The translations under genes and the position numbers were made by a program. This document shows, piece after piece, positions 597 to 41,861 of a DNA stretch of 64,000 nucleotides. The stretch covers positions 2,650 to 66,649 of the forward strand of contig MGJI01000006.1 in assembly GCA_001794195.1 (NCBI GenBank). Reading direction: 5' to 3'. Source of the DNA: Candidatus Yanofskybacteria bacterium RIFCSPHIGHO2_01_FULL_44_17. GTDB taxonomy: Bacteria; Patescibacteriota; Minisyncoccia; 2-02-FULL-40-12; IGHO2-01-FULL-4-A. How positions within the stretch are numbered: the stretch's first letter is position 1; every line of letters begins with the position of its first letter. Under the pieces are notes generated by a model that had not been told where the DNA came from, ran no database searches, and saw nothing but the letters and a program-made list of their open reading frames with translations.

Positions 597-824
597 GCTC
601 GGTGGATAATGCCTTCTGTCACCACTTGCAACCCCAGCGAGAATTCTACCACAGAATTTTTTTAACGCTTCGCATGGAATCTACGCTAAAATTCTGGGTT
701 GAGCCAAGCAGTTGGTTCAACCGCCGTCAAAAGTGTGGATTCAGCTCGCAATTAGGAAATTATACTGCTCGATGACCATGCAATCCACTCTTTTGACGGT
801 GCTATAAGGCATTAATCACCGAGC
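597..824 (+). repeat. Structured palindromic intergenic repeat, copy 1 (long variant, ~228 bp)
   Basis: Ends GCTCGGTGGATAATGCCTTCTGTCACC ... GGTGCTATAAGGCATTAATCACCGAGC are inverted repeats. The core (CACTTGCAACCCCAGCGAG, GTCAAAAGTGTGGAT, AAATTATACTGCTCG, ATCCACTCTTTTGAC) is shared with copies at 35681 and 41699, and this copy carries an extra ~85-nt internal insert. Confidence 0.6.
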
Positions 825-832
825 TATGTAAA

Positions 833-1384
833 ATGAATAAACAAATAACAATTTGGGTGCTGGCTCTAGCGGCAGGGATCGGCCTAATTTGGTTTTTTAA
901 TATTTCAAGAGAGGGATCGCGTGAACCAGAGGTCAGCATCAGTGCTTCAGCTACGCCTGTTATTTCAGCTACCCCCGAACCCAGCCCAGCCGCATCCAGG
1001 AAGCCCATTGTTAGCCAGCAGCCGGAAGTTATCAATAAGTACCCTCCGGCAGAATGCACTTTGACCGGCAGCATTACATTTTTATCGCCTACGTTATACG
1101 AAAACAAAGACGCCAACATTATTTATAAAAATATTGATAGTGTCGCCCGGCACATCATTTGGGCCGTGTCCCCTGGAGAAAATCTATCCGTGGGGCCCAA
1201 TCTTTTCGCCAGTTTACCTCTGCCTGACGGCACAGAGGATGTAACCGTAACTTTGCCGGAGAATTATACATCCAAGAACTATACTCTGACCGCTAAGGTT
1301 ACCTATGGGGTAATTATTAATAGGGACTTAGTAATTAAGGAATCTTCTTGCGTCGGTCAGATTCCCGTTACTGTTAAATTCTAA
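833..1384 (+). CDS. hypothetical secreted/membrane-anchored protein (N-terminal TM, Pro/Ser-rich linker)
   Basis: ORF with hydrophobic N-terminus (IWVLALAAGIGLIWFF) followed by a low-complexity segment (ATPVISATPEPSPAAS). No recognisable domain. Confidence 0.45.
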   Translation: MNKQITIWVLALAAGIGLIWFFNISREGSREPEVSISASATPVISATPEPSPAASRKPIVSQQPEVINKYPPAECTLTGSITFLSPTLYENKDANIIYKNIDSVARHIIWAVSPGENLSVGPNLFASLPLPDGTEDVTVTLPENYTSKNYTLTAKVTYGVIINRDLVIKESSCVGQIPVTVKF

Positions 1385-1385
1385 T

Positions 1386-2687
1386 ATGCAATTAAGGCTC
1401 AAAAAAAATTATATTGTTTTGATTTTGGTGGTTTTGGGTGCGGCTGGCTATCTTTGGATAACCAATTTTCAGTTAGTCAAAAAGATTGTCGGCTATAATG
1501 TACCTCAGACTACCCAGTTGCCGGTCGGACCGGGAGTAGATTTTCTTAAAGCGCCCGAAGGATTCAGGGTATCGGTTTTTGCCGAAGGACTGGCTGGCCC
1601 GCGAGTGATCGCCTTTGATCCAAGGGGGCGGGTGCTTGCAAGTGTTCCTAAGGAAGGCAAGGTTTTAGTTTTAGAAGACCAGGACAATGACGGCTTCGCC
1701 GAGATCAAGCGCGTTGTATTACAGGGACTGCGTCTGCCGCATGGTTTGGACTTCTATACCGACCCCAAGAGCAAAATTGCTTATTTATACGTAGCCGAAA
1801 CGCATCAAGTTAGCCGTTTCGTTTATAATGTGGTTGATGGTTCGGTGCCGAGTGCCATTAGTAAAAATATTGCCAACCTGCCGGCTGACGGGAGGCATTT
1901 TTCGCGGACGATTGCTTTTGGTCCGAATTTTAGAAAAGCCCAGATTATAGCCGGAAAGAGCGAAGTTGATACTCAGGTTCCGGTTAAGTTATATATAAGC
2001 GTTGGTTCGTCTTGCGATGTCTGCGTAGAAACGGAAACCTGGAAACGGGCGGCGATATTAGAGTCTGATCCCGAGGGCAGTTTCACGGCGGAATTTGCCG
2101 GCGGATTGCGCAACAGCGTTTTTTTCACATTCCATCCCGAGACCAAAGAAATCTGGGCCACTGAAATGGGTCGGGATAATCTGGGCGATGAGTTGCCGCC
2201 GGATGAGGTGAATATCGTCAAGGTTGCCGATGAGGGCAATAAATTCGGCGCGCGCCGCTATGGTTGGCCGTTCTGTTACGGCAACCGTGTCAAAGACACG
2301 ACATTTAAATTTGATAAGATTACACGAACCGACTTGTCATCCAATTGTGTCGATACCGAGCCCGCGACCATTGAGCTGCCAGCCCACTCCGCACCCCTGG
2401 GCCTAGCCTTTATTACAAGCGATAAATGGCCCAAGGAGTGGCACAATGACCTCTTGGTGGCCTATCATGGCTCTTGGAACCGTAGCGAGCCTACAGGCTA
2501 CAAAATCGTTAGATTAGACGTAGATAAAAACGGAAAGAGTTTCGGTACTTCGGATTTTATATCTGGCTGGCTTACATCCGATGGCAAGACTCTAGGACGA
2601 CCCGTTGACCTAAAATTCGGCCCCGACGACGCCCTCTACATCTCCGACGACTCCTCTGGCACAATCTACCGAGTCGTGCCCCGGTAA
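1386..2687 (+). CDS. PQQ-dependent sugar dehydrogenase-like beta-propeller protein (soluble glucose/sorbosone dehydrogenase family)
   Basis: N-terminal TM anchor. Motifs typical of the GSDH family: EMGRDNLGDELPPDEVNIV...GNKFGARRYGWP and C-terminal GRPVDLKFGPDDALYISDDSSGTIYRV. Confidence 0.6.
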   Translation: MQLRLKKNYIVLILVVLGAAGYLWITNFQLVKKIVGYNVPQTTQLPVGPGVDFLKAPEGFRVSVFAEGLAGPRVIAFDPRGRVLASVPKEGKVLVLEDQDNDGFAEIKRVVLQGLRLPHGLDFYTDPKSKIAYLYVAETHQVSRFVYNVVDGSVPSAISKNIANLPADGRHFSRTIAFGPNFRKAQIIAGKSEVDTQVPVKLYISVGSSCDVCVETETWKRAAILESDPEGSFTAEFAGGLRNSVFFTFHPETKEIWATEMGRDNLGDELPPDEVNIVKVADEGNKFGARRYGWPFCYGNRVKDTTFKFDKITRTDLSSNCVDTEPATIELPAHSAPLGLAFITSDKWPKEWHNDLLVAYHGSWNRSEPTGYKIVRLDVDKNGKSFGTSDFISGWLTSDGKTLGRPVDLKFGPDDALYISDDSSGTIYRVVPR

Positions 2688-2775
2688 ATTGATTTTAGCT
2701 TGACCTTACATCCGCCGTTCTGCTACGGTGGAGGCACTCAAGATTTAACGTGGCGGGAGGGCCACCTAGATAGGC

Positions 2776-5559
2776 ATGCGATTATTGCAAAAGGTTTTGT
2801 TTATTACCGCGCTATTCGGCGGTGTTTTGTTATTTGGTCGTGGCGTTTATGCTGATACGCCTGTGGGCGGGTTATATTCAGCGAATCAGCACTGGACGTT
2901 GGCAGGCAGCCCATACATAGTTGAAGGTTTTGGCGAGGGAGTTGTCATACAATCCGGCGCAACCCTGACTATTGATCCGGGCGTAATCATAAAACTAAAA
3001 TCTGGTACCCAGCTTTGGGTTGATGGTACGGTTATCGCTCGCGGCACCGCAGAACGGCCAATTATTTTTACGTCCTTCTATGACGACTCCGTTGGTGGAG
3101 ATACGGATGGCCTAGGTCTGACTGCCGGTTCGCCCGGTGATTGGTGGAGAATTGGCGGTGGCCTTCCAAGCGGTAATCCGCGATTAGAATTTGACTACAC
3201 TCAGGTTCGCTTCTCCGCTCATGGTTTTGATTTGGTCTTAACAAGTTTGCCGATTACTGTAACGAACAGCGTTATTGAAAATGGCGGCTATGGTTTCCGA
3301 CTGAATCAAACCGGTAGTGATTTAATAATTGAGAATAATGTTATCCGCAACAACGGTTATGGTTTTTTCCTTAATCAAATTAACGACTCCTCTAATTTTA
3401 TAAAAAACAACATCGTTTCCGGCAACTCATTCCGCGGCGCCTACAACCAGACTCCCGGTGTCCCAGTCGATATGCGCAATAATTCATGGGGCGACCCCTC
3501 CGGCCCGCTTCATCCGACCCTGAATCCGGACGGTTTGGGCAATCAAGTTTCCGACGGCATCATCTTTGACCCATGGCTTGAGAAGGTGACAGCTCCGCCA
3601 ACAAAAACCCCGGTTATCATCGTGCCGGGGATTGCAGGAAGCGAACTCAAAGATGGCGGCGACTTAATATGGGCTGATCTAGATCAGATGTTCTTTGATA
3701 TTGGTGATCAGTTTATTACCGAAAAGTTGGGATTAGACGAAAGCGGACAGCCAGTGAACACAGAAACCCAGGTTGGGGAGGTGATCGAAAAGATTTTAGG
3801 CGGCGTGCCCATTCTCAATATTAATATTTTCGAAGCATTAACACTGCGTCTTTTCGGCACTGGTTACGTATTAAACCAAGACATATTCTTTTTCCCTTAT
3901 GATTGGCGTCTAGATATTAATGACACGGCCTCTGGCCTTGCCGATAAAATTGAGCAGGTAAAATCTCAAACCGGTGCGGAAAAAGTAGATATCATTGCTC
4001 ATAGCATGGGCGGACTCTTAACCAAGGAGTATATAAGGCAAAACGGCAAAAGCAGTATTGATAAGCTAATTTTTATCGGAACGCCACACATCGGTGCTCC
4101 TAAGGCCGGGAAAATCGTTCTTGCCGGTGACAGGATGGGCATACCCTGGTTAACGGCGGCAAGGATTAAGGAGATTGGCGAACACTCCGTTGCCGTCCAT
4201 GAACTTTTGCCCAACTCGTCGTATTTTATCGTGGCCGGGCCGTATATTAAAAATTCCGATGGCGATTTACTGGATTACGGGCAAACAAAACAACTGCTGA
4301 TTGAGCAAGGTTCAGCAACCGATGTTTTTAATGCCGCTGAAAACTTTTTTACCCATGGACTTGAAAATACTGATTTTACAGGTATTGACGCTTACAATAT
4401 TGCCGGCTGCAAAAACGAAACTCACGCCGGCTATCAAACCCGCGCAGATGGAACGATTGAGTTTATCAAATACCGCGCCGGCGATAAAACCGTGCCTTTG
4501 ATAAGCGCAAATGAGATTTCAATTCCCATTGAAAATAAATTTTATGTTACCAAGGGAACGCATGCCGAGCTTCCGAGCCGGCCGGGAATCCGTAATTTAA
4601 TCGCGGATATTTTAACGAATCAGCCGTTGACCAACTATGAGAATGTGTCTGCGGATAGCTCCGTTTGTGGCATAGAAGGACAGGAACTTATTTGGCGAAG
4701 TCCGGTTGATGTCCACATTTATGATTCGCAAGGTAGGCATACCGGGCCGATAGGCAATGATGCTATTGAGTATGGTATTCCTGAAATTGATTACGAAATT
4801 TTCGGACACGAAAAATTCATATTTGTTCCTTCCGATGCCGAAATATATCAAATTATTGCGCATGGTCTGGATGCTGGCACATTCGATCTTTCCATTCGCC
4901 AAAATGATAACGGAACTGTGACAGGGGCATCAGTTTTTAATGACATTCCGGTTACTGCCTCTTCTGAAGTTAAGCTGGTTTTAAGCGGTGGCAGCATAAT
5001 CAGCAATATCGAAGTTGACGAAGATGGAGACGGAACCTTTATTCCTGTTCCAGCCACATCATTTTTGAGCAGTCTTGAAGCAGAAGACACCACCCCGCCG
5101 GATATTGTTATTGTTTCTCCGACTTCCAAGTCATATGAGCGTTCGGAGGTTTTGCCGATAGATGTTTTGGTCAGCGATGATAATTCTGGTTTGCTTACAA
5201 CGGAGTTCATGCTAGATAACAACGTGGTTTTATATCCAAGGATTGATTTGTTTTTCTACTTTTTGGGTTCTCATTCCTTGGATGTTTCGGCGATTGATAG
5301 GGCCGGTAATACTGCAACCGCAAGTTTCAATTTTCAAATTATTGCGACCATTGATAGCACCATATCCGACATTAATCGGGCGTATGAGCTTGGTTGGATA
5401 AAAAAGAAGAGTGTTAGAAACGGCCTTATCCAAAAAATATCCGAGTTGTCGATATCCGCATTTATCAAACAGCTGGAAAGAGAGTATGCTAAGGGTAGTA
5501 TTAATGAACGGGCCTACAACTTGCTCAAAGAAGATGCGAGTTGGCTGTTAAATAAGTAA
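2776..5559 (+). CDS. large secreted multidomain protein: right-handed parallel beta-helix repeats + lipase/esterase (PGAP1/LCAT-like alpha/beta hydrolase, GHSMGG) + C-terminal Ig-like repeats
   Basis: Signal peptide (LFITALFGGVLLFGRGVYA). Repeated NNxIxxNGYGF beta-helix motifs. IIAHSMGGLLTKEYI nucleophile elbow (GxSxG). 927 aa. Confidence 0.6.
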   Translation: MRLLQKVLFITALFGGVLLFGRGVYADTPVGGLYSANQHWTLAGSPYIVEGFGEGVVIQSGATLTIDPGVIIKLKSGTQLWVDGTVIARGTAERPIIFTSFYDDSVGGDTDGLGLTAGSPGDWWRIGGGLPSGNPRLEFDYTQVRFSAHGFDLVLTSLPITVTNSVIENGGYGFRLNQTGSDLIIENNVIRNNGYGFFLNQINDSSNFIKNNIVSGNSFRGAYNQTPGVPVDMRNNSWGDPSGPLHPTLNPDGLGNQVSDGIIFDPWLEKVTAPPTKTPVIIVPGIAGSELKDGGDLIWADLDQMFFDIGDQFITEKLGLDESGQPVNTETQVGEVIEKILGGVPILNINIFEALTLRLFGTGYVLNQDIFFFPYDWRLDINDTASGLADKIEQVKSQTGAEKVDIIAHSMGGLLTKEYIRQNGKSSIDKLIFIGTPHIGAPKAGKIVLAGDRMGIPWLTAARIKEIGEHSVAVHELLPNSSYFIVAGPYIKNSDGDLLDYGQTKQLLIEQGSATDVFNAAENFFTHGLENTDFTGIDAYNIAGCKNETHAGYQTRADGTIEFIKYRAGDKTVPLISANEISIPIENKFYVTKGTHAELPSRPGIRNLIADILTNQPLTNYENVSADSSVCGIEGQELIWRSPVDVHIYDSQGRHTGPIGNDAIEYGIPEIDYEIFGHEKFIFVPSDAEIYQIIAHGLDAGTFDLSIRQNDNGTVTGASVFNDIPVTASSEVKLVLSGGSIISNIEVDEDGDGTFIPVPATSFLSSLEAEDTTPPDIVIVSPTSKSYERSEVLPIDVLVSDDNSGLLTTEFMLDNNVVLYPRIDLFFYFLGSHSLDVSAIDRAGNTATASFNFQIIATIDSTISDINRAYELGWIKKKSVRNGLIQKISELSISAFIKQLEREYAKGSINERAYNLLKEDASWLLNK

Positions 5560-5838
5560 ATGGTCAAGAAATATTTATTTGTAATTTTTGGTCCAATTGT
5601 TTTAGCCATATTAAATGGTTATGTTTCAAGTTATTATTTTTTTAGTTGGGGTTACGACAATAGAAATCAAATAAGCACCGTCCTGTTCGGCCTATCTTTA
5701 ATTGGTTCGGTGTTTGTTGTTATTAATAATGCTAAGGGTTCTAAAGAAAAAATCTGGTTCGCAGCCGCTGGCTTTATGTTGGCTATCAACCTTTTTATTA
5801 TCTACGCCATTCGTGCCCTCTCCAATTTCGGTTTCTAG
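5560..5838 (+). CDS. small integral membrane protein (paralog of 5875..6291)
   Basis: Three predicted TM segments. C-terminus ...ALSNFGF with the 15-nt string TTTCGGTTTCTAGCC shared with the next gene, including the stop codon. Confidence 0.4.
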   Translation: MVKKYLFVIFGPIVLAILNGYVSSYYFFSWGYDNRNQISTVLFGLSLIGSVFVVINNAKGSKEKIWFAAAGFMLAINLFIIYAIRALSNFGF

Positions 5839-5874
5839 CCGAACCTAAAACACCAAGGAAGCTTTCAAAAATAA

Positions 5875-6291
5875 ATGGATTTTTTCGATGCCCAACAAGT
5901 TTTATTGATTTACCGTTTACTTTTTATTGTGGGCGGCCTGTTTGTTTCTCGCATTATTCAGGTTGTTTTTAAGAGAATAAATAGGAGAACAGACGTTCAG
6001 GATCGTAAAATTTTAAGAAAAATTGTATTCACGTATTTGTTTATATTTCCGCTTCTTTGGATCGTTTTTGCTGAGTTTTTCTTGGGCATTGAGGACATTT
6101 TGATTAGAGACGGTTACAAATTTTATATACCATTTATTTTCGTATCAATGTTTTGGAGTATAATAACTTGGCTCTGGGTACCGCCACAAAGAAGGAGGAA
6201 AAAGCTCATTTATTTTCTAACATTTCTGGCGTACCTTGTGACTATCGGGGTGTTATTCAGTGCGTATAGTCTTTCTCATTTCGGTTTCTAG
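5875..6291 (+). CDS. small integral membrane protein (paralog of 5560..5838)
   Basis: Four predicted TM segments. C-terminus ...SLSHFGF. Confidence 0.4.
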   Translation: MDFFDAQQVLLIYRLLFIVGGLFVSRIIQVVFKRINRRTDVQDRKILRKIVFTYLFIFPLLWIVFAEFFLGIEDILIRDGYKFYIPFIFVSMFWSIITWLWVPPQRRRKKLIYFLTFLAYLVTIGVLFSAYSLSHFGF

Positions 6292-6453
6292 CCGGCGGAT
6301 TCTATTTTTTTCAAAAATCCTAGACCTAGACAGGGGTGGCTAGTTAATTTGAGCATGACGCGAATGCCCAATGGCACCTAAATTATTGGCCAACTGAGGG
6401 CAGCCCTCGGCAGGGATACAATTTCTTTAGAATTGATCTGAACAAATTAGTAA

Positions 6454-6717
6454 ATGAAATATAATAATTTCCATAAAAAATTGGTTAGATATTCCAAGGA
6501 CATCCTGGCTATCGTTTTAATTTTATGGGGAGTGGTCGCCTTTTTAACGCCGTTTACGCCGGGTTCTTGGCTTGTCTTTGTGGGGCTGTTCATTATTTTT
6601 GGCAGAAAGAAAACTCAAGACAGGTTGGCCCGAATAATTGGCAAGAAGTGGTTTGATAAACTTAAGGTTAAAAAGATATTCGAAGAGATACCCACAAAAC
6701 TAGACGGCAAAGCATGA
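6454..6717 (+). CDS. small membrane protein
   Basis: Two TM helices. ATGA overlap with the following gene suggests translational coupling. Confidence 0.4.
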   Translation: MKYNNFHKKLVRYSKDILAIVLILWGVVAFLTPFTPGSWLVFVGLFIIFGRKKTQDRLARIIGKKWFDKLKVKKIFEEIPTKLDGKA

Positions 6718-7508
6718 CAGAAACAATACTCGAAAAACTAGCTAGATTTGCCCAGCGTATCTGGCTTCCGAGATTCAAGAGAATCGAGGATGCGATTGGA
6801 TATAAGTTGATATTTCGGAATATTCCGAGTGATTATATAAACGGTTGGATGGCCTGTGAAATGACCAAGACCTGGAAGAAGTTTGGGCTTGACGTAGAAA
6901 GGGGCGCGAACTATTTCACCATGGGCAGTATTCACGATGGCGAATCCTCCCGATTCGACCCCGACTCAGTGAAATATCAATCTTGGCTAGGAGGATATAC
7001 CGTAAAGCTGGAGCACGAGGTGAATTGGACACCGGAAGATCATTTTAAACTTGCAGTCGCTGATCAAAACAACTGGCCGAGACACTATGGCGACCCAAGG
7101 CCTGTGACAGATATTGAAGGTTGGAATTTTGTTCCGGTAGGCGAGATCCAAATCGATCAACATTCGGGGCAGCTTTACGAATTTGGCTGTACCACGGATG
7201 ACGATGTTGGAAGTGGCTACAATACAATTAAACTCCGATTTACTTCTGCTTGGATAGCTGCTTCGTTTAATCTTTTAAATCCGGATTTAAAACTAAGAGG
7301 CGACGAATTCAAGCCACGGAAGTCTGACAAGGTGTACGGAAGAGTAAGGCTCTTGGGGTATTTTGCTATTTTTGATATCGCAGAGAGGGTGAAGGTCGTG
7401 CTTTATGGAAACGGATTTATTGACGAAAGAAAACACGTCAATACGTTTACGGTGTTAAAAGATAATCTGCTTAATGCCATAAAATTCTGCGAGATAGTCG
7501 CAGTATGA
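6714..7508 (+). CDS. hypothetical protein
   Basis: 264-aa ORF with 4-bp overlap to the upstream gene. No domain recognised. Confidence 0.45.
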   Translation: MTETILEKLARFAQRIWLPRFKRIEDAIGYKLIFRNIPSDYINGWMACEMTKTWKKFGLDVERGANYFTMGSIHDGESSRFDPDSVKYQSWLGGYTVKLEHEVNWTPEDHFKLAVADQNNWPRHYGDPRPVTDIEGWNFVPVGEIQIDQHSGQLYEFGCTTDDDVGSGYNTIKLRFTSAWIAASFNLLNPDLKLRGDEFKPRKSDKVYGRVRLLGYFAIFDIAERVKVVLYGNGFIDERKHVNTFTVLKDNLLNAIKFCEIVAV

Positions 7509-7560
7509 ATTTGGCTAAAATTACTCCAACATTCTCAAGAATGTTAGAATGTCGAGAATG

Positions 7561-9159: not shown

Positions 9160-9529
9160 TTCTCGAGAACACTGCTTGTCTCCTAATTTTTCTTACAACA
9201 TCATGTCTTCCTACAAATTATGCAAAACTCGCTAAATTGTCGGACACAGACCAGTTCTCCGTTTGCCGCTTGAAAACTTCAGCTAAAGCTTCGTTTTCTG
9301 CGCGTTTTCCGACTAGTCTTAGTGTTACCCGACAATTCTTAACGCTCGCTTTGCTAATTTATCAGTCGACAGATGAATGACGAAAAATTAGAAGACTCGC
9401 TTTGTCTAAACTCTCGAAATGACGAGGAGTTTGTCTTCTCAATATCTTAGAGCTTATCTTGACCCTAGCTTTCTAATTTTTGAGGAATGCGACGGTCTAA
9501 AACCCTTATTTTACAATGACTTTTGAGGG

Positions 9530-14106: not shown

Positions 14107-14111
14107 GCAAT

Positions 14112-20385: not shown

Positions 20386-21432
20386 ATGAAAATAGCAGTT
20401 GTTGGCGGGGGAATATTCGGGGTTACCGTAGCGGTTAAACTGGCGAGGGTCGGTTTTGGTGTGGATCTTTTTGAAAAAGAAAAAGATATTTTGATGGCTG
20501 CATCGGGTATTAATCAATTCCGTTTGCATCGAGGCTATCATTATCCGCGAAGTGCGGAGACTATCAGAGACTGCATACGCGCGGAGGCAAGCTTTGTAAA
20601 AGAATATGGTGGGGCGGTAATTGCCGGCGATGATCATCACTACTGTATCGCTAAAGAGGGTAGTCTGATACACCACAATGATTTTGTTAAAGTCTGCAAG
20701 AATTTTGGCCTTGGGTATGTGGAGGTGAGACCCGCAATGGTCAACCATGATAGGATCGGCCTTTCGGTTAAGGGGTATGAAAGCAGGATCGATCCAGATA
20801 AATTGAGACAACTGTGCTGGCAAAAACTAAAATTTGCTAAGGTTAATCTAAAATTAAAAACAGCAGTCACTGTCATGCAACTTAAAAAATACGATTTCAG
20901 GGTAATTGCTACATATGCCAGATTGAATGATTTTGTACCGTCAGCCAAACAGCGTAATTATCAATTTGAACTATGCGAGAAGCCGGTTGTTAAACTGCCG
21001 CGCGAGTTTAATAAGCAATGCCTCGTAGTTATGGACGGACCGTTTATGTGTATTGATCCTCTCGGACGAACGGGTAGTTTTCTGCTCGGTAATGTGGTGC
21101 ATGCTATTCATCAAACCAACATCGGCAAAAAACCGGAATTCGATAAAAAATTTAAACCCCTGCTAAATAGGGGAATTATCCGCAATCCGCCGGTGACTAA
21201 CTTCAGGAAATTTATTGAATCAGGGGCGGAGTTTATTCCTGGCTTAGTCAGGGCTAAGCACATAGGATCCATGTTTACTTTCAGGACGGTTTTACCTCGG
21301 CTTGAAAAAACCGATGCCCGCCCTACTGTTGTTACCAAAATTGATTCCAAAACAGCAACTATTTTCTCTGGCAAAATCGGCAATTGTGTTGAGGCGGCCG
21401 ATGAGGTACTAGCGTTAGTAAAAGAAATTTAA
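20386..21432 (+). CDS. FAD/NAD(P)-binding oxidoreductase
   Basis: N-terminal dinucleotide-binding motif MKIAVVGGGIFGVTVAVKLARVGFGVDLFEKE (GxGxxG). Confidence 0.65.
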   Translation: MKIAVVGGGIFGVTVAVKLARVGFGVDLFEKEKDILMAASGINQFRLHRGYHYPRSAETIRDCIRAEASFVKEYGGAVIAGDDHHYCIAKEGSLIHHNDFVKVCKNFGLGYVEVRPAMVNHDRIGLSVKGYESRIDPDKLRQLCWQKLKFAKVNLKLKTAVTVMQLKKYDFRVIATYARLNDFVPSAKQRNYQFELCEKPVVKLPREFNKQCLVVMDGPFMCIDPLGRTGSFLLGNVVHAIHQTNIGKKPEFDKKFKPLLNRGIIRNPPVTNFRKFIESGAEFIPGLVRAKHIGSMFTFRTVLPRLEKTDARPTVVTKIDSKTATIFSGKIGNCVEAADEVLALVKEI

Positions 21433-22215
21433 TTATTTCAAGGTTCAACCTTGAAATGGTTTTGAAGGGTTAATAAGGCGTCGGTTGCTCTGGTTTAAAT
21501 TCAAGCCAGCCTACGATTTCATTTATGAAATCAGCTTGTTTTTCAAAGTAGCGTGGGAATTGTCCAGGTGTCAAAATGGCCGATTCCGACCTTTTTATTT
21601 TTAAGTAATCTGGGAAGCTAGAATGCCGATAATTTTTTAAATGTTCTTTTGCCCGGTTCATATTTTTCACACCTTTATTTTTCCAATCCGGCTCAATGTG
21701 TGAAACCGGATTAAGGTGAATATATGAGTATAAATATTTCAAATAATTATCGCTATCTACATGCCGAGCTCGAAAGCGACCTTCAAATAAACTTCCTGAT
21801 CTTTGGTTTCGAATGTTAAAATACATAGTATATGCGGTCGTCAGTTTTTGCATAAATTGACTAACCCCGCCGCCTATGAGTTCGCGAACAAGTAAATGAA
21901 AATGGCTACCCATTAAACAATAGGCGCCAATGGCTGCTAGAGCTTTACCGCGCTCAATTTTATAAATAGGTATGCCTGAAAATATCTCGCGCACCGTGCT
22001 TAAATGTACTGCTTCGGTGCCGTTGCATAAATATAGAAGTTTTTGAAAACGGTTCCTGTCATTAGAATTAGTAAAAACGAGCCGTTTTTCAACGCCCCGG
22101 TTAAACACGTGGTAATATTCTCCTTCAGAAAAAGAAAACGGTCGAGACATGAGTTTATGACATGTTAACTCAATATTATCCCCATTTCAAGGTTGAACCT
22201 TGAAATGGGGATACA
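21433..22215 (-). mobile_element. IS200/IS605-family (HUH Y1 transposase) insertion element with subterminal hairpins
   Basis: Near-identical palindromes flank the transposase gene: ATTTCAAGGTTCAACCTTGAAAT (21435-21457) and ATCCCCATTTCAAGGTTGAACCTTGAAATGGGGAT (22178-22212). Confidence 0.7.
21470..22150 (-). CDS. Y1 HUH transposase, IS200-like / REP-associated tyrosine transposase-like
   Basis: YHVFNRGVEKRLVF; HUH motif in YCLMGSHFHLLV; C-terminal RFRARHVDSDNYLKYLYSYIHLNPV (catalytic Tyr region). Confidence 0.8.
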   Translation of the reverse strand: MSRPFSFSEGEYYHVFNRGVEKRLVFTNSNDRNRFQKLLYLCNGTEAVHLSTVREIFSGIPIYKIERGKALAAIGAYCLMGSHFHLLVRELIGGGVSQFMQKLTTAYTMYFNIRNQRSGSLFEGRFRARHVDSDNYLKYLYSYIHLNPVSHIEPDWKNKGVKNMNRAKEHLKNYRHSSFPDYLKIKRSESAILTPGQFPRYFEKQADFINEIVGWLEFKPEQPTPY

Positions 22216-22290
22216 ACCACTGCTTCTGGCAAAATTGGTAACCGTGTTGAAGCCGCGGAAGAGGTGCTGGAAATGGCAAAATTAGTTTAA
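22213..22290 (+). pseudogene. diverged duplicate fragment of the 3' end of the FAD-oxidoreductase gene
   Basis: Encodes TTTASGKIGNRVEAAEEVLEMAKLV*, compared with the genuine C-terminus SKTATIFSGKIGNCVEAADEVLALVKEI* at 21350-21432. It lies immediately outside the IS hairpin. Confidence 0.5.
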
Positions 22291-33080: not shown

Positions 33081-33151
33081 GACAAGCCTTCATTTTCGTG
33101 CTATCCTAATTTTAGCTAAGCAGTTTTTTAACAATCTAAAAAGGAGAGTTA

Positions 33152-34075: not shown

Positions 34076-34192
34076 AGTCACTTAGATTGCGTTGCTATTG
34101 ACTAGATAGCGACGATTTGTTAATTTAATAAACAGCCACTGATGATAGGTGGTTTTTGTTTAAGTTTTTTTACAAAAAAGAGGAGGCTGCAG

Positions 34193-35266: not shown

Positions 35267-35276
35267 TTAAACCGCT

Positions 35277-35669
35277 TTATGCGGTTTTGTTTTTGAAAAC
35301 AAATTCTTTTTGTAAGAGAAATGTTAAAAGGGAGAGGGGCGGTAGCAATATTGCTCCAGCGATGTAATTGCTTATTTCAAAGATGTTGAAAATTTTCAGG
35401 CCGGCTAAGTACAGGCCGTATATTAAAATATAAACCGCAAAGAAGCGGCCGATAAGTTTATGATCATTATTATTGAAGACCACCTTGCCGGTGGTTTTGA
35501 AATTAAACAAAACTCCGAGAATTAGTTGGAGCAGAGAGGCGAGCGTATAGTGGAGGTTAATAAATATAAAAAAAGCAAAAACCCCGTAAGCAAAAAGTGT
35601 GTTTATTATGCCCACGAGTACAAACAATATAAATTGTTTGGTCAGGAATTTTTGAAGTAACCTTTTCAA
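35277..35669 (-). CDS. GtrA-family membrane protein (polyprenyl-phosphate sugar flippase-like)
   Basis: 130 aa with 4 TM helices. FILFVLVGIINTLFAYGVFAFF typical GtrA N-terminus. Confidence 0.65.
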   Translation of the reverse strand: MKRLLQKFLTKQFILFVLVGIINTLFAYGVFAFFIFINLHYTLASLLQLILGVLFNFKTTGKVVFNNNDHKLIGRFFAVYILIYGLYLAGLKIFNIFEISNYIAGAILLPPLSLLTFLLQKEFVFKNKTA

Positions 35670-35680
35670 GTTAGTTATTT

Positions 35681-35850
35681 GAGCTTGGCCGAATAATGCC
35701 TTCTATCACCTCTAGCAACCCCAGCGAGGTTGCTGCGCTCCGTTGAAACTGTGGATTTTCCTCGCAGTGAAAAATTATACTGCTCGGAACCGTGCAGATC
35801 ACACAGTTTCAGCGGTGCTATAAGGCATTATTCGGCCAAGCTCTATTTTT
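35681..35850 (+). repeat. Structured palindromic intergenic repeat, copy 2
   Basis: GAGCTTGGCCGAATAATGCCTTCTATCACC ... GGTGCTATAAGGCATTATTCGGCCAAGCTC (a 30-nt inverted terminus). Shared core CAACCCCAGCGAG, AAATTATACTGCTCG. It fills the whole intergenic gap between two minus-strand genes. Confidence 0.65.
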
Positions 35851-37039
35851 CCAACGCTTTTTTTAATTTTTTCATTCCCTCAACTATGTTTTTCTGGGAG
35901 CTGGCATAAACTAGGCGAACATAGCCTTTTCCGTGCCTGCCGAAATTAGTGCCTGGCAATAAGACAACGCCTGCTTTTTCAAGGGCGAAGCGGCTGAATT
36001 CTTCGCTGGTCATTCCAGTTCCGGTAATATTTGGAAAAACATAAAACGCTCCGTCGGGTTTGAGGCAGTGTACGCCGGGCATTTCGTTGAGAAGCCCGAC
36101 CATAATGTCGCGCCGTTGGCGGTATTCAGCCACGCTTTTTTTCACGAATGCCTGGTCGCCGGTCAGAGCGGCGATACCAGCCCTTTGAATAAATGGCGGA
36201 ACCGCGGAAATCAATGTTTCAACCATCAGCCCCATTTTTTTAACGATATGCTCGGGTGCTACGGCCCAGCCCAGACGCCAACCGGTCATGGCGTAGGTTT
36301 TAGAAAAACTGTTTAGAATAATTATATTTTTTTTACATTTATCAAAGATAGCCGGTGAGTTATGTTTTTGGCCGTACGTCATCTTTGAGTAGGCTTCGTC
36401 AGTGAGAAGATAGATTTTATTTTTTGATGCTATTTTAGCAACTTCTAACATCTCTTTTTGGGTCATAACTGCTCCTGTTGGATTATGCGGAGAGTTTATA
36501 ATAATTAGGCGTGTTTTTGGTGTGATGCTTCTGCGAATATCAGCCGGAGACATGCGAAAGTTATTTTTTTCAAGAAGCGGGATTCCGACACATTTTGCTC
36601 CGATGAAATCGAATGCGGAATAGTAGGAGGCAAAACCGGGATCGGGTACGATAACCTCTTCGCCCGGATTAACTACGCAGCGAGTAACGAAGTAAATAAA
36701 AGAAATGGCCGGGGCAACTATAATCTGCTCAATGTCTGGTTTAAAACCGTTTATTCGCTTAGTTTCAAACCGTATGGCTTCGCGCAATTCGCGCATTCCC
36801 ATAGAACTGACATAGTGCGTTTCGCCACTCTCTATGGCTTTGATGGCTGCCTTATTTATGTGTGCTGGCGTATCGAAATCGGGATCGCCGATTTCAAAGT
36901 GATATATTTTTTTTCCTTGTCGTTCAAGGGCTTGGGCTTTGGCGAGAAATTGAAACATCGGACTGCCTGAAAGTTTCTGAGCGGACCGAGATAAATAAAG
37001 ATTCGGGGTATTTTTTTTAATTTTGTTTATTTTGTTCAT
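35843..37039 (-). CDS. class I/II PLP-dependent aminotransferase
   Basis: SFSKTYAMTGWRLGW (PLP-lysine motif) and NPTG motif. Confidence 0.8.
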   Translation of the reverse strand: MNKINKIKKNTPNLYLSRSAQKLSGSPMFQFLAKAQALERQGKKIYHFEIGDPDFDTPAHINKAAIKAIESGETHYVSSMGMRELREAIRFETKRINGFKPDIEQIIVAPAISFIYFVTRCVVNPGEEVIVPDPGFASYYSAFDFIGAKCVGIPLLEKNNFRMSPADIRRSITPKTRLIIINSPHNPTGAVMTQKEMLEVAKIASKNKIYLLTDEAYSKMTYGQKHNSPAIFDKCKKNIIILNSFSKTYAMTGWRLGWAVAPEHIVKKMGLMVETLISAVPPFIQRAGIAALTGDQAFVKKSVAEYRQRRDIMVGLLNEMPGVHCLKPDGAFYVFPNITGTGMTSEEFSRFALEKAGVVLLPGTNFGRHGKGYVRLVYASSQKNIVEGMKKLKKALEK

Positions 37040-37139
37040 CCCGTACGAAGTAGCTGCTGCGCAGCCATCAGTATAAGTTACGTGTGCAGAACTTATGTTG
37101 TTATATATTCAATACCCCTTTTTGTTTTACCCGTTAGGG

Positions 37140-38198
37140 CTACTTCGTACGGGATTCATACCACTTTTTTAGTCTAACAAGTCCGGTCTCAAGATTAATT
37201 TTGGGTTTGTAGCCAAGCTTTGATATTTTTTTTATTGAGGGCGTTGTTTTTTGCGGCGTTCCTTTAAGGTGAGGTATGTTTTTGTCGTAAGCCCTCCGTA
37301 CTTTAGTTTTTTTAGCAGACATTTTTACGAATAGTTTTGCCAAGCTAAGTATGCTGATTTCTTTATCGGATCCTATATTGTAGGCTTCGCCAGTCTTGCC
37401 TATAAGTAATATCCGCCACATACCTTCGATGGCATCAGAAACATAAGCAAAAGTTCGTATAGAAGTACCAGCATTTATGATTTGGAGATTTTGCCCTGTG
37501 AATATTCTTTTCATAAATTCTGGAATAATACGTCCGTCATCCAGCGGTAGGCGAGGGCCATAAATGTGGAAAAGACGTGCTATTTTTACTGGAACGTCGT
37601 AGATTTTATTGTAATAGTAACATAGGGTCTCAGCCATTCTTTTTGATTCTTGCAGTGCTGCTCTGGGACCGAGAGTATTGACGTTGCCCAGGTAATCTTC
37701 AGTTATGGGTATGTGTTTTTGATCTGGATCACCATATGTTTCGCCTGTGCTGACAAATAGAAAGCCTCTTACTTTATTTTTTGCCGCATATTCCAGTAAT
37801 GATTTGGTGCCGAGGATATTAGCGTAAATCGTATCAAGCGGATTAGCAGTGTAATCTCTGGGCGAGGCTTTGGATGCGGCATGTATTACGAAATCTATAC
37901 CGCTAGGCAGTTTTAGAGGCTTGGTAACATCCTGGGTTATAAATTTGACGTATCGGTTTTTGAGGCAGTGGCCGAGTCGGTCTCTCGGGCTTACTTTTCT
38001 GCGGGTCAACAGCAGCAGGCGAGCCGGCCTTTTGATCAGTAGGGTTTCGTTTAGGGCAAGGACTGTATCCGCAAAATATGAGGGGACAAAGCCGTTGGCC
38101 CCAGTAATTAAAATAGTTTTACCGGCAAGTTGTTCAAAGTGTTTACCAACGGCTTTGATTATTCTGGTCAGATCTTCTTTTATAATAGAATCGATCAT
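37140..38198 (-). CDS. NAD-dependent epimerase/dehydratase (extended SDR, UDP-glucuronate decarboxylase-like)
   Basis: GKTILITGANGFVPSYF Rossmann motif and a catalytic YxxxK region. Start placed at the internal Met to avoid overlap. Confidence 0.7.
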   Translation of the reverse strand: MIDSIIKEDLTRIIKAVGKHFEQLAGKTILITGANGFVPSYFADTVLALNETLLIKRPARLLLLTRRKVSPRDRLGHCLKNRYVKFITQDVTKPLKLPSGIDFVIHAASKASPRDYTANPLDTIYANILGTKSLLEYAAKNKVRGFLFVSTGETYGDPDQKHIPITEDYLGNVNTLGPRAALQESKRMAETLCYYYNKIYDVPVKIARLFHIYGPRLPLDDGRIIPEFMKRIFTGQNLQIINAGTSIRTFAYVSDAIEGMWRILLIGKTGEAYNIGSDKEISILSLAKLFVKMSAKKTKVRRAYDKNIPHLKGTPQKTTPSIKKISKLGYKPKINLETGLVRLKKWYESRTK

Positions 38199-38202
38199 TA
38201 TT

Positions 38203-39210
38203 TTATTCACCCAGCTTATCTCTGTGCTTACTCGGATCATTGATTATTTCTCGGATAACGTATTTGGGCCGTTGTTTGGCTTCTATGAATATGCGTCCGA
38301 CGTATTCGGCTATTACTGCTAAAATCAAAAACTGAATTGAAGCCAGAATCATTGGAATTATCAAAAGCGTTAGGAACCCTTTGGGCGCCGAATAAAATAT
38401 GGCCAGCACTATGTAAGCGGCTATTGCCATCAATGTAAGGCAAGTCATTACTATTGCCAACATGGTTATAAGTTCGATGGGGAAGTGAGAAAATGAAAAA
38501 ATGCCTCTTTTTGCCTCACGAATATAAATTGCGAGTCCGCTTGCCGACTGGCCTGAAAAACGCTGATCCCGATCGTACGGAATACCGACGCTTTTGAATC
38601 CAGCCCATGCCCGAAGGCCCCTTAGGAAGCGATCAGTTTCCGGTAGACTGTTGAGAACGTCAATTACCTTCCTGTCCATTAAGCCGTAGTTGCCAGAATC
38701 AAGGGGTATGTTGATATAAGACATTTTTTTCAGAATTCGGTAGTAGGCCTTGTAGCCGATTCTTTTTAGTAAACCCTCTTTCCTTTTTTTTCTGACGCCG
38801 TAGACCACCTCATAACCTTCAAGCCACTTTTTTACGAATTCTGGAAATAATTCTGGCGGATCCTGAATGTCGCCATCAAGAAGTATGGCTGCATCTCCGG
38901 TGCACACTGCCAGTCCGGAGGTATATGAAATGTCTGCTCCAAAATTTCGGGCATGGTCAACCACCACAAACCTAGAGTCGCGGGTCGCCTTTTCTCGGAG
39001 AACTTCAATCGCATTATCTGGACTGGAATCGTTTACATAGATAATTTCGTAGTTAGGCGTTATCTGTGCCATTACAGCTGTAACTCGACGGTACATATCG
39101 TCTACCGAACCGGCATCATTATAGCAAGCGACAATTACGGAGATTTTTTTATTAGTCAACATAAGCCAGACTTTAGCAAATAAAAACGCCGGTTTATAGT
39201 TGACAAGCAT
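38203..39210 (-). CDS. GT2 polyprenyl-phosphate glycosyltransferase (GtrB/ArnC-like) with C-terminal TM helices
   Basis: ISVIVACYNDAGSVDDMYRRV...EIIYVNDSSPDNAIEVL...LDGDIQDPPELF. Two C-terminal TM segments. Confidence 0.8.
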   Translation of the reverse strand: MLVNYKPAFLFAKVWLMLTNKKISVIVACYNDAGSVDDMYRRVTAVMAQITPNYEIIYVNDSSPDNAIEVLREKATRDSRFVVVDHARNFGADISYTSGLAVCTGDAAILLDGDIQDPPELFPEFVKKWLEGYEVVYGVRKKRKEGLLKRIGYKAYYRILKKMSYINIPLDSGNYGLMDRKVIDVLNSLPETDRFLRGLRAWAGFKSVGIPYDRDQRFSGQSASGLAIYIREAKRGIFSFSHFPIELITMLAIVMTCLTLMAIAAYIVLAIFYSAPKGFLTLLIIPMILASIQFLILAVIAEYVGRIFIEAKQRPKYVIREIINDPSKHRDKLGE

Positions 39211-39265
39211 TTTTTATTATGCTTATTATATCTAGGCAGTAGATCTTTGAATTCGGGGCGCGATA

Positions 39266-39805
39266 ATGTTGACGAATCTGGAAGAGCAACAGATGATCGA
39301 TTTGGCCAAAAAAATGGGCAGTCAATGGACGCCCGGACTTTACAACGCTTTGGCTCCTAAATTTGCTTTAACCGCGATCGAAACAGTATTTTTGAGAATG
39401 AAAGAGGATGGTTCTGCGGAGGTAGAGGTTTTATTGGCTAGGCGTCTGCACAGCGACGCTCATTATCCGAATCAATGGCACTCTCCGGGCACGATGTTGC
39501 GAGCCGTTGATGTTCCAGAAGAGACTGAGATGTATCTCGGGATTCCTGAGTTAAATGGTTTCAGAAAGGCCCTAGATAGATTAGTAAATAGCGAGCTCGG
39601 ATTAAGATTTAAAGGAGAACCCCGGCAGGTTAAATCAATTCTGCATTTTACACCCCGTGGCCCGGAGGTAGCTCTGATTTTTCTTTGCGAACTTGATGGC
39701 GAACCTAAGTTTGGGGAGTTTTTCAGTGTTAATCAATTGCCTAGTGATCTCATAGAGCATCACTATCGGATTATCAAGGTTGCGGTAGATAATTTCAAGG
39801 AATAG
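39266..39805 (+). CDS. hypothetical protein
   Basis: 179-aa ORF with no recognisable motif. Followed by the hairpin GGCATCAC-TTAT-GTGGTGCC plus T-rich tract. Confidence 0.45.
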   Translation: MLTNLEEQQMIDLAKKMGSQWTPGLYNALAPKFALTAIETVFLRMKEDGSAEVEVLLARRLHSDAHYPNQWHSPGTMLRAVDVPEETEMYLGIPELNGFRKALDRLVNSELGLRFKGEPRQVKSILHFTPRGPEVALIFLCELDGEPKFGEFFSVNQLPSDLIEHHYRIIKVAVDNFKE

Positions 39806-39866
39806 TTTTTCTTGTGTACCTCTTAGCTGTCTTTCTAAAAACTAGGCATCACTTATGTGGTGCCGT

Positions 39867-41693
39867 TTAATTTATTTCTGACGATTTTTTCTTGCCATCA
39901 TCGTCAAGCGGAGCTACCACCATGTTGGCATGAAATTCTTCTCGCGGCAGGAGGGGAATCATGTCTTCGATGGGCTTGCTTATGTATCGGCCATCGGGAG
40001 TTTTGACTGCTACCAGTTTCGGGATCAGTTTTTGTGATTCGTCTAAAATAACATCGCACACGACCGGGCCGGTGGCATTCAGAACTTTTTTAATTTTGGC
40101 TGCCAACTCGCCATGGTTTCTGATGGTTTCTGTTTTAATACCATAAGCCTTGGCGATTTTGAGAAAATTTGGCGCGGAATAGCCGGTTTCTTTTGCTGTG
40201 GCTTCGTACCTGGCGCCGAAGTAAACCTCTTGAAACTGTTTAATTATGCCGTAGGAGCGATTGTTCATTATAAAAATTTTAATAGGCAGCTTATTGTGTT
40301 TTATGGTTTGGAGTTCTTGTATATTCAACTGGAAGCCGCCATCTCCGTCTAAACAGATTATCGGGCACTTTCTATTGGCAAATGCGGCACCGATTGATGC
40401 CGGCAGGGAGTAACCCATTGGGGAGTTACCAAAAGCAGAAAATAATTGTTGGCCTCTTTTAATTCCGAACGCCTGTATCGTCCAGGTAAGATTCCCGCCC
40501 TGATCGGCGACCACAATGGCTTTGCTTGGTAGTTTTTCAGAGAGAGCCTTAACAAATACATAGGAGTTAACTGATCCTTTTTGTTCATGATATTCGGGCA
40601 GGACCGTTGGATATTTTTGTTTCCAAGCGTGACAACGTTTGAGCCAGTCTTTGTTGTATTGAATCTTTTTTGAAACAAGCGAACTGTTTATTTCGCTCAG
40701 AAAATCCTTAACATCGGCATGAACCGGAATATCGGCCACGACCCACTGTTTATCAAGCTCTGCCTTATCAATGTCCACTGTAATTTTGAATGCTTCTCTG
40801 GCAAAGGTTTTGGGTTGGCCGCCAGTTTGGCGAGTATCCAAACGTGATCCTAGGCTAATAAGGAGATCTGAATTTTGAACTGTAAAATTAGCCGCTCTGT
40901 TGCCGTAAACTCCGAACTGGCCGATGTATAGCGGATGATTGTGGGGTAATATATCTATTCCGCTCCAAGTTGAGACGACGGGCGCCCCTAGTTTTTTTAT
41001 AAAAGTTGCGAACTCTTTTTTGGCTTTGCCAAGTTTTATGCCCGCGCCGGCAATTATTACCGGTCTCGTAGCTTTTCCTATTGCTGAAATTACCTTTTTG
41101 ATTGTAGCCGAAGAAATTGTCTTAACGGGCTCCTTCAATTCGGACGGTTGGAAGCCTTTTAATTTTTTCGGATCTATTTCGGCGTGCTGGACGTTCATGG
41201 GAATATCTAGCCAAACGGGTCCAGGTCTACCAGATTTTGCCAGATAGAATGCTTTGTCCAGATAGTATTTTATTTGTTCTGGATCTTTGATTATAGCAGC
41301 AAATTTGGTTATCGGTTTGACGATTTCTATGATGTCGGTTTCCTGAAAACCAAGTTGGCGTATTTTGCGTTCACCCTTAGTTTCCCACAGATTAACTTGG
41401 CCGGTAATAAGTAACATCGGTATGGAGTCAAAATAACCGCAACAAACTCCGGTAATCAGATTTGTTGCTCCCGGACCGGAGGTGGCGACGGCGACACCTA
41501 TGTTTTGAGTGACTCTGGAATAAGCTTCGGCGGCCATGGCCGCTGCTTGTTCGTGTTGCATGCAGACGTAAGATATTTTTTTGTTTTTCCCCAAGGAATC
41601 AACTATGTGGGCGCAGGCCCCGCCCGTGATTAAAAAGACGTCTTTAACGCCACGGTCAACGAGATATTGAGCTAGGTAATCTGTTAGTTTCAT
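39867..41693 (-). CDS. thiamine-pyrophosphate enzyme of the acetolactate-synthase large-subunit family (possibly a YerE-like sugar two-carbon branching enzyme)
   Basis: 608 aa. N-terminal TPP_enzyme_N region (VFLITGGACAHIVDSL...QHEQAAAMAAEAYS), a central domain and a C-terminal TPP-binding GDGGFQLNIQEL motif. Confidence 0.75.
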   Translation of the reverse strand: MKLTDYLAQYLVDRGVKDVFLITGGACAHIVDSLGKNKKISYVCMQHEQAAAMAAEAYSRVTQNIGVAVATSGPGATNLITGVCCGYFDSIPMLLITGQVNLWETKGERKIRQLGFQETDIIEIVKPITKFAAIIKDPEQIKYYLDKAFYLAKSGRPGPVWLDIPMNVQHAEIDPKKLKGFQPSELKEPVKTISSATIKKVISAIGKATRPVIIAGAGIKLGKAKKEFATFIKKLGAPVVSTWSGIDILPHNHPLYIGQFGVYGNRAANFTVQNSDLLISLGSRLDTRQTGGQPKTFAREAFKITVDIDKAELDKQWVVADIPVHADVKDFLSEINSSLVSKKIQYNKDWLKRCHAWKQKYPTVLPEYHEQKGSVNSYVFVKALSEKLPSKAIVVADQGGNLTWTIQAFGIKRGQQLFSAFGNSPMGYSLPASIGAAFANRKCPIICLDGDGGFQLNIQELQTIKHNKLPIKIFIMNNRSYGIIKQFQEVYFGARYEATAKETGYSAPNFLKIAKAYGIKTETIRNHGELAAKIKKVLNATGPVVCDVILDESQKLIPKLVAVKTPDGRYISKPIEDMIPLLPREEFHANMVVAPLDDDGKKKSSEIN

Positions 41694-41698
41694 AGTGA

Positions 41699-41861
41699 TG
41701 AGTCTGTTGAATAATGCCTTCTATCACCACTTGCAACCCCAGCGAGGCTGCTGCATTTCGTCAAAAGCGTGGATTCTGCTCGCAGTTAGTAAATTATACT
41801 GCTCGCAAACCGTGCAACCCACTCTTTTGACGATGCTATAAGGCATTATTCAACAGGCTCA
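41699..41861 (+). repeat. Structured palindromic intergenic repeat, copy 3
   Basis: TGAGTCTGTTGAATAATGCCTTCTATCACC ... GATGCTATAAGGCATTATTCAACAGGCTCA. The core is near-identical to copy 1. It directly abuts the stop codon of the DegT gene. Confidence 0.65.

Follow-up and report, generated by a model that had tools for sequence, protein, structure and literature searches.

What is the short, heavily structured sequence that recurs three times between the genes of a single stretch of patescibacterial DNA, and in which form does it act? The stretch, termed the window throughout, comprises 64,000 nt of Candidatus Yanofskybacteria bacterium RIFCSPHIGHO2_01_FULL_44_17 (contig MGJI01000006.1, positions 2,650 to 66,649). 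A first-pass annotation, made from the letters alone, had pointed to three intergenic copies with a common core and nested stems that vary in concert. In the present study, the element was found to be a branched hairpin of 165-330 nt in which structure rather than stem sequence is conserved, and more than 100 distinct relatives were fetched by pattern scans. The family is structurally constrained and dispersed in many copies; it is present, absent or decayed at orthologous sites, mosaic in composition, and without coding capacity or a nearby partner gene. It is read here, tentatively and with a little less than even confidence, as an interspersed repeat that is non-autonomous and dependent on its structure, with a folded single strand as the acting form.

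A branched fold maintained by compensatory change

The three sequences and their common core lie where they had been reported and contain every sequence quoted for them, with limits now refined to 594-827 (copy 1), 35681-35843 (copy 2) and 41699-41861 (copy 3), all on the + strand. Each core block occurs three times, against 0.06-0.22 occurrences expected from dinucleotide-preserving shuffles. A covariance model, as the first-pass annotation had proposed, was built from 78 relatives and returned exactly three matches in the window, all on the + strand and at 131-161 bits, while the minus strand reached merely 21-31 bits. Copy 1 is a long form, whose closing stem ATAGCTCGGT.../...ACCGAGCTAT surrounds the junction, a side hairpin, an optional module and a rod; its fold has an energy of -89.2 kcal/mol (z -7.8) and it is matched by the model at 588-842 (130.6 bits, E 1.4e-29). 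Copies 2 and 3 are standard forms, recognised by sequence, fold and covariance model. The values for copy 2 are -89.4 kcal/mol, z -12.0 and a match at 35675-35858 (160.3 bits, E 5e-37), and those for copy 3 are -67.4 kcal/mol, z -8.0 and a match at 41693-41876 (161.2 bits, E 3e-37). The z-scores of -7.8 to -12.0 refer to shuffled controls, and the fold is stable on either strand.

The architecture is most easily followed in copy 2. The 5' arm of the closing stem P1 (35681-35702, +) pairs with the 3' arm (35822-35843, +) through 22 unbroken pairs in both the minimum-energy and the centroid fold, and the 3' arm is further supported by family covariation. Across the family, P1 is a near-perfect duplex of 20-35 bp, from which a short helix, CACC/GGUG, leads into the junction. 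The side hairpin P2 (35713-35735, +) has the stem AGCAACC/GGUUGCU and the invariant loop CCAGCGA. In other copies this stem is variable (GCAACC, GAAUUC, CAAUU, GUCCGC, AAAAA and others) and the loop CCAGCGAG is fixed. The remainder forms a rod, P3-P4-P5 (35737-35818, +), with invariant columns and the paired helices 4-7. Within it, P3 typically takes the form GUCAAAAGCGUGGAU / AUCCACYCUUUUGAC, P4 consists of three variable pairs with many complementary forms, a symmetric UC/UC internal loop lies inside GCUCGC...GCUCG, and P5 (GCAGU/ACUGC) closes a loop ending in the invariant AUUAUAC. An invariant one-sided bulge, ACCRUGCAA, is located on the 3' strand of the rod. In the 78-sequence alignment, the invariant parts of the rod are GUGGAUU, the helix CUCGCAGU...ACUGCUCG with its symmetric UC/UC internal loop, the terminal loop ...AUUAUAC and the 3' bulge ACCGUGCA. 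In total, about 45 loop, bulge and junction bases are invariant.

Outermost stems that are specific to each copy yet complementary, together with a covarying inner stem, had been described for the three copies, and sequences and folds bear this out. The proposal that the compensatory changes reflect a selected single-strand structure, whether of RNA or of hairpin DNA, is strongly upheld at the level of the family. Alignment of 78 distinct copies with MAFFT and RNAalifold yielded 49 pairs, 40 of which carry compensatory changes. Pair statistics were then drawn from 115 matches, 108 of them distinct. Of the 5174 cells in the 49 model pairs, 92.2% are paired, compared with 34-42% when partners are slid by 1-3 columns and 65.9% in column shuffles. 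Double changes are seen at 46/49 pairs (31-39 slid, 37.6 shuffled), and the covariation score of 0.628 compares with 0.07-0.11 for the slid controls and 0.17 for shuffles, none of 500 shuffles reaching the observed value. All 22 pairs of P1 in the family model are doubly compensated, and helices 4-7 are 96-99% paired, also with double changes. A mutual-information scan recovered every helix, together with two additional nested pairs closing P2 and a further one closing its loop, and revealed no pseudoknot or other non-nested or tertiary covariation. A candidate pseudoknot between the P2 loop (GCGAG) and CUCGC was rejected, since natural variants do not covary and the scan gave nothing non-nested. 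Coding signal is absent, indels and stem swaps being incompatible with a reading frame.

The idea that the likeness is due to chance, or to recent segmental duplication without structural constraint, draws on the fact that the window itself holds just three copies. It is refuted and retains a negligible probability: E values run from 1e-29 to 1e-37, covariation lies far beyond both controls, and the flanks are unrelated in a family of more than 100 relatives spanning many genomes, so that simple recent duplication of one locus together with its flanks, which had been named as a possible objection, does not apply.

It can also be observed that about one third of copies have a second symmetric internal loop, of GCUCGC/GCUCGC type, in outer P1, with the same motif as the core UC/UC loop (L056, L039, L046, L061, L074, L110, L118, L014, L045, L066 and L087). 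More pairs, particular to a copy or a subfamily, lie outside this second loop, as in CUCAAAAAUUAUYC.../...GAAUAAUUUUUGAG.

Distribution, placement and persistence of the family

All named sources of the relatives are Patescibacteria, and most relatives are groundwater metagenome contigs. When one genome per species was scanned for the exact pattern, 5 copies appeared in 4 patescibacterial assemblies (by label, two Yanofskybacteria, one Paceibacterota and one Saccharibacteria). A scan of metagenome contigs found at least 117 stretches, many from Hainich groundwater, of which five are false positives in coding DNA; two matching contigs derive from JGI metagenome 3300002502, as does the contig of the window. 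In the fetched loci, the covariance model uncovered additional, more diverged copies, with up to three per 9-14 kb, and the density in the window is three copies per 64 kb. No matches were obtained in viral contigs, phage records or plasmid records. The comparison with Rfam that had been suggested was likewise carried out, and the family matches none of its entries: no score reached the gathering threshold against Rfam 15 families, hairpin, hammerhead, twister, HEARO, IS605-orfB, 6S and group I/II introns included. Permissive scans of copy 2, copy 1 and one long form returned eukaryotic microRNA and small nucleolar RNA noise far below threshold, and Rfam scans of five other loci gave only tRNAs. 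No description of a Patescibacteria repeat or RNA of this kind was found in the literature searched. As a separate observation, comparison by eye gives about 95% identity between the core of window copy 2 and that of the copy in L007/L122, from the assembly labelled Saccharibacteria, the closing stem of which is only distantly similar; subfamilies older than species, horizontal transfer or a mislabelled bin could account for this.

Each of the three window copies nearly fills its intergenic gap next to a stop codon, as had been described. At copy 2, the final base falls within the stop codon of the minus-strand aminotransferase gene 35843-37039. Copy 3 is bounded on one side, at a distance of 2 nt, by the stop of a DegT-type aminotransferase gene on the minus strand (41863-43101), and on the other by the start of the thiamine pyrophosphate (TPP)-enzyme gene 39867-41693. 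Family-wide, 13/92 copies with distinct flanks overlap an open reading frame (ORF) of at least 90 aa by a crude ORF call, and the upstream ORF lies at a median distance of 11 nt. The two flanking genes are co-directional with each other in 29 cases with the element in sense and in 17 with the element in antisense, and there are 5 divergent and 5 convergent arrangements. The earlier remark that all copies share one strand whatever the gene orientation holds inside the window but not across the family, where both orientations occur. Within 3 kb of the copies, no protein family recurs; the repeated neighbours are housekeeping orthologues, namely GrpE, DnaK, Mur ligase and ABC ATPases. A riboswitch or cis-regulatory leader was rejected, as both orientations relative to genes are found and the neighbours share no function.

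Many copies are situated at orthologous sites with flanks 70-85% identical, the grpE-dnaK spacer being occupied in four species, and contigs from other samples carry the same element at the site of copy 3. Between orthologous copies, 7-21 pairs have changed with double compensation. Elsewhere the orthologous site is empty (L097 vs L069; L097 vs L119/L007/L122; L099 vs L024), and in L089 only the 3' 45 nt of the element are left at a site that is filled in L064. Since some sites are empty or decayed, individual copies are dispensable. Both P1 arms are absent from the empty sites, and solo palindromes like the outer stem are no more frequent in the loci than expected (1 found, about 1.6 expected). 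The outer stem is therefore part of the element, where it drifts with compensation, and is not target sequence. Insertion into pre-existing palindromes or terminators was discarded for related reasons: the empty sites lack the arms, there is no family of solo CTCG-centred palindromes, and orthologous outer stems are homologous.

The placement bears directly on the possibility that the element is a host-domesticated cis element in operon transcripts, serving processing, stability or insulation, with a P1 duplex that works either way round. Copies lie almost always between co-directional genes of one operon and fill the spacer; P1 provides 20-35 bp of near-perfect duplex on both strands (fold z -12.0 and -10.8); grpE-dnaK and similar sites are occupied in four species; and ERIC repeats are reported to change the decay of the mRNAs that contain them (PMC3184786). 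Yet a stem that works either way leaves the invariant strand-specific loops, the bulge and the branched core unexplained, the flanking genes have no common function, the same spacers are empty in related genomes, and no terminator signature is seen. On this last point, 13/104 copies have four or more consecutive T in the 12 nt downstream, compared with 10 in the control (T-run upstream or A-run downstream). Such a domesticated role is considered improbable. A small-RNA gene with its own terminator was also rejected, since T-runs are not enriched and a promoter would not fit. Read on the minus strand, the invariant ATTATAC becomes GTATAAT, and no -35 box was seen at workable spacing when the sequence was judged by reading.

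Further hairpins are inserted optionally at fixed sites, namely in the P5 loop, between P2 and P3, and inside the P2 loop exactly between CCAG and CGAG, so that long forms, in which a single junction carries four hairpin domains, extend to about 330 nt. The extra insert that had been noticed in copy 1 is real, a two-hairpin module of 73 nt between P2 and P3 (650-722, +), consisting of CACAGAAUUU...AAAAUUCUG round a small hairpin and then GGUUGAGCCAA-GCAG-UUGGUUCAACC. It is not private to that copy, being present in at least nine others (L009, L024, L050, L073, L076, L077, L082, L092 and L109), and it covaries in turn, with CAGAAUUU/AAAUUCUG replaced by CAGGAUUU/AAAUCCUG and GGUUGAGCC/GGCUCAACC by GGUGAAGCC/GGCUUCACC. 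L090 and L042 have P1 in common (93%) and different P2, P3 and P4 modules, from which it follows that copies exchange segments.

A second, smaller repeat was encountered in the same loci. A 28-nt perfect palindrome, CCCYCACACYYATGCATRRGTGTGRGGG, occurs at L050:6831-6858, L087:5220-5247, L100:7649-7676, L036:2542-2569, L012:8866-8893 and L087:6795-6822. In 5/6 cases the same tetranucleotide stands on both sides (CGAG...CGAG, or CTCG...CTCG in L050), which resembles a 4-bp target duplication. In four of the cases the palindrome is located within the structured element, where it occupies conserved CTCG/CGAG loop motifs; the other two cases are elsewhere. The palindrome may be a separate tiny mobile hairpin.

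The acting strand and the possible means of spread

The sequence signal is strongly specific to one strand, at 131-186 bits against 15-31 bits on the reverse strand. Regarding wobble pairs, G-U is not enriched: among the 5174 cells, 120 are G-U and 149 A-C, and for P1 alone the counts are 71 and 123, although many mismatches are common to subfamilies and the counts are not independent events. GC skew in the flanks, taken on the element strand, is positive in 57/84 loci (p = 0.0014). In the window, each 8-kb bin has positive skew on the + strand (0.035-0.108), and this extends to 36-48 kb, where minus-strand genes surround copies 2 and 3. The whole window probably lies on one replichore with the + strand as leading-strand sequence, and its skew would fit a process tied to the replication strand. 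UNCG or GNRA tetraloops were also tried as an indicator of strand and were abandoned owing to a small sample and an ambiguous outcome. As a whole, there is a slight lean towards single-stranded DNA, or a hairpin of either strand, as the acting form rather than the RNA of one strand.

The principal rival is a new class of structured non-coding RNA, which could be a ribozyme, serve as a scaffold for protein binding, or belong as the RNA component to a mobile or defence system not recognised so far. On this view, the transcript of the + strand would be functional, P1 would merely close the fold, and paralogous copies would be kept by selection. The five to seven covarying helices, the invariant loops, bulge and junction and the variable optional stems at fixed positions make up the classical signature of a functional RNA, but neither tertiary covariation nor an Rfam match has come to light. 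The strand-specific signal and the excess of G-U over A-C in the core point the same way, whereas overall G-U does not exceed A-C and the relation is reversed in P1 (71 to 123). Sense copies predominate (29 to 17), yet more than one third of copies are antisense to the operon, a promoter of their own would not fit into gaps of 0-20 nt, and a terminator T-run is missing. Copies at orthologous sites have stayed intact across species whose flanks are only 70-85% identical; against this, some orthologous sites are empty or decayed and there is no conserved gene neighbourhood. A new RNA class is accordingly regarded as quite possible, albeit not probable. A more specific version, in which an ornate RNA confined to Patescibacteria is a self-processing ribozyme or the partner of mobile or defence machinery, and the copies are footprints of RNA- or single-strand-mediated spread, is somewhat doubtful.

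The search for a transposase or recombinase recognising the termini, which the first-pass annotation had recommended, disclosed no linked enzyme in the window or in the element loci. Pfam scans of window ORFs returned no integrase families. The window does contain a gene for a Y1 (HUH) transposase-like protein, IS200-like and of 225 aa (21470-22147, minus strand), identified with Pfam. The protein scores 26.4 for Pfam Y1_Tnp (cut-off 23) and 32.6 for the NCBIfam REP-associated tyrosine transposase (RAYT) model (cut-off 80); it has an HUH-like motif, SHFHLL, and a C-terminal motif, YIHLNP, with a tyrosine as expected for the catalytic Tyr. At 21435-21457 and 22184-22206 the gene is bracketed by two perfect hairpins that are nearly identical, ATTTCAAGGTT(C/G)AACCTTGAAAT. 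These hairpins (ATTTCAAGGTTSAACCTTGAAAT) occur twice in the window and never in the 125 element loci, and they have nothing in common with the element. Homologues in other Patescibacteria are found at syntenic positions, each lineage having flanking hairpins of its own (L126, L131), and the unit resembles domesticated RAYT-type genes. A link between the element and the Y1 transposase is not supported, as no physical or sequence connection was found.

At this point the view of the element as an ordinary MITE (miniature inverted-repeat transposable element), or as a REPIN moved by the IS200-like Y1 (RAYT-like) transposase of the window, can be assessed. Inverted-repeat ends, small size, many copies and intergenic position are all in its favour, since the P1 arms constitute terminal inverted repeats of 20-35 bp in every full copy, and so are a Y1_Tnp gene in the window with an HUH-like motif and hairpins on both sides, and homologues that are syntenic in the manner of domesticated RAYTs. 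However, the outermost bases of the arms are the least conserved, target-site duplication and conserved termini are lacking, and there is no symmetric doublet of short palindromes; the Y1 hairpins are unrelated, no copy lies at nine Y1 homologue loci, and the RAYT score is below its cut-off. The earlier argument against a classical MITE with target-site duplication therefore stands, as no such duplication was found. TA or CTCG, tried as candidate duplications, were not consistent between copies, and comparisons of filled and empty sites involve flanks too diverged to reveal one. The view of a MITE or Y1-driven REPIN is very unlikely to be correct.

Beside the Y1 unit, about 70 nt coding for the C-terminus of gene 20386-21432 (...GKIGNCVEAADEVLALVKEI) are repeated, in diverged form, after it (...GKIGNRVEAAEEVLEMAKLV), at 21340-21432 and 22207-22290. 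The unit seems to have been inserted near the 3' end of this gene, one copy of that end having been duplicated or carried along.

For the folded, non-autonomous repeat preferred here, the following course of events may be envisaged. The element would multiply and persist in very short intergenic spacers, and what is recognised would be the folded single strand, not the duplex sequence, either by a putative trans-acting enzyme or through selection. With recognition of this kind, the stems would be free to change while pairing is retained, and the roughly 45 unpaired bases would be frozen. Copies would swap modules by recombination and be lost by deletion. Operon transcription would read through copies in either orientation, and the long perfect P1 duplex in such transcripts could, by analogy with ERIC and Correia repeats, present a site for RNase III-type processing or for stability. 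We infer that the family spreads as a mobile element.

Several results weigh against this preferred reading. Among 104 distinct copies, no consistent direct repeat was found in the flanks, TA fitting only a handful, and neither conserved terminal bases nor a flank consensus was detected. Within about 714 kb (the window and 125 loci), no parent element was found, be it a split or ORF-containing version or a recurrent neighbour protein. The covariance model found no element copy in 140 kb round nine Y1 homologue loci, and 650 kb of element loci hold no Y1 homologue, although a single-copy trans-acting gene would rarely fall there. In the core helices alone, G-U exceeds A-C (49 to 26). The bias in flanking skew is gone at third codon positions (50 to 49) and, because it vanishes there, may only mirror the mild sense excess. 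Furthermore, a branched architecture with some 45 invariant unpaired bases and fixed-site hairpins is more typical of functional RNAs than of the bacterial hairpin repeats known to date, and persistence at orthologous sites with intact structure could reflect host benefit rather than selfish spread.

Relation to known repeats and significance

The genomic setting of the window is a surface-glycan biosynthesis region in which ORF annotation and Pfam scans identify many glycosyltransferases, sugar aminotransferases and epimerases, together with NeuB; it has no tRNA genes and no Rfam matches at gathering thresholds. The TPP enzyme beside copy 3 has 608 aa and is identical to a protein of Candidatus Yanofskybacteria RIFCSPHIGHO2_01_FULL from Rifle groundwater. 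When closer relatives of the window genome were looked for, so as to see exact insertion junctions, the nearest further homologue of this enzyme was just 73% identical.

In comparison with catalogued repeats, to which no sequence similarity was found, the element resembles in habit the ERIC/IRU, Correia (NEMIS), RUP and Bacillus cereus group bcr repeats, being like them non-coding, multicopy, intergenic and often located just after genes. Repeats of this type, usually filed as MITEs, measure 100-200 nt; they occur in both orientations, with variants that have internal insertions at fixed sites, and some families exhibit compensatory changes. Correia repeats are flanked by TA and have a role in the processing and stability of transcripts. 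The present element differs in having no target-site duplication, in termini that drift instead of being the conserved part, in its branched fold, which has about 45 invariant unpaired bases and a junction bearing as many as four hairpin domains, and in its patescibacterial host. ERIC repeats themselves are co-transcribed, fold into a long hairpin, have flanking TA and are reported to affect the decay of mRNA (PMC3184786).

As with REPINs, the element is hairpin-forming, extragenic, multicopy and found at orthologous sites, and a RAYT-like gene is present in the window. The REPIN and RAYT system is described as vertically inherited and long persistent, its partner being a single-copy gene elsewhere (10.1101/2022.05.22.493013, PMC3116915). 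The differences are that the element contains no doublet of 20-35-nt palindromes and no conserved 5' tetranucleotide, and that the RAYT-like gene has a different flanking hairpin. Moreover, the element is not a palindrome of the REP or REPIN type, since its fold is asymmetric, the junction joins three or more arms, the bulge is on one side and the loops are specific to the strand. With classical MITEs it shares terminal inverted repeats and variable presence at sites of related genomes. It falls outside the definition of a classical MITE because it lacks target-site duplication, and outside that of a REPIN because it has neither the palindrome doublet nor a cognate RAYT.

The HEARO/IscB omega RNAs and IS605-orfB motifs are ornate covarying RNAs of 150-300 nt, multicopy and sometimes without an adjacent gene. 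Unlike these, the element matches no Rfam model and has no adjacent nuclease, transposase, tnpB or iscB gene; unlike omega RNAs, it has no free variable guide-like segment, its variable outer parts pairing together. It also differs from the IS200/IS605-derived PATE, the sole Y1 unit in the window having ends different from those of the element. Integron attC sites, such as the Vibrio VCRs, are imperfect palindromes abutting stop codons, in which structure is kept more than sequence and which act as a folded single DNA strand. In the element, by contrast, the centre is conserved and the base variable, RYYYAAC/GTTRRRY core sites are lacking, and the ends read AGCTTGG.../...CCAAGCT or variants thereof. 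Furthermore, copies are 6-35 kb apart among glycan-biosynthesis genes, occur in both orientations family-wide, and form no cassette array. The element behaves like the long-lived hairpin repeats of other bacteria (ERIC, Correia, REPIN), being non-coding, intergenic and multicopy, gained and lost, subject to recombination and presumably read through by transcription; it differs from them by a branched modular fold that is equally compatible with a new RNA.

The family is not in Rfam and would be missed or mis-annotated in such genomes, and as a repeat it may break metagenomic assemblies. Patescibacteria have tiny, packed genomes in which much standard machinery is missing, and repeats that occupy a sizeable part of the scarce intergenic DNA and have preserved an elaborate fold across species need an explanation. 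If the element is a selfish hairpin, a replicator of the ERIC/REPIN type would be extended to a new phylum, with a far more elaborate recognition structure and a putative structure-specific enzyme. If it is an RNA, it would represent a new class of large structured RNA, with more than 100 members and excellent covariation.

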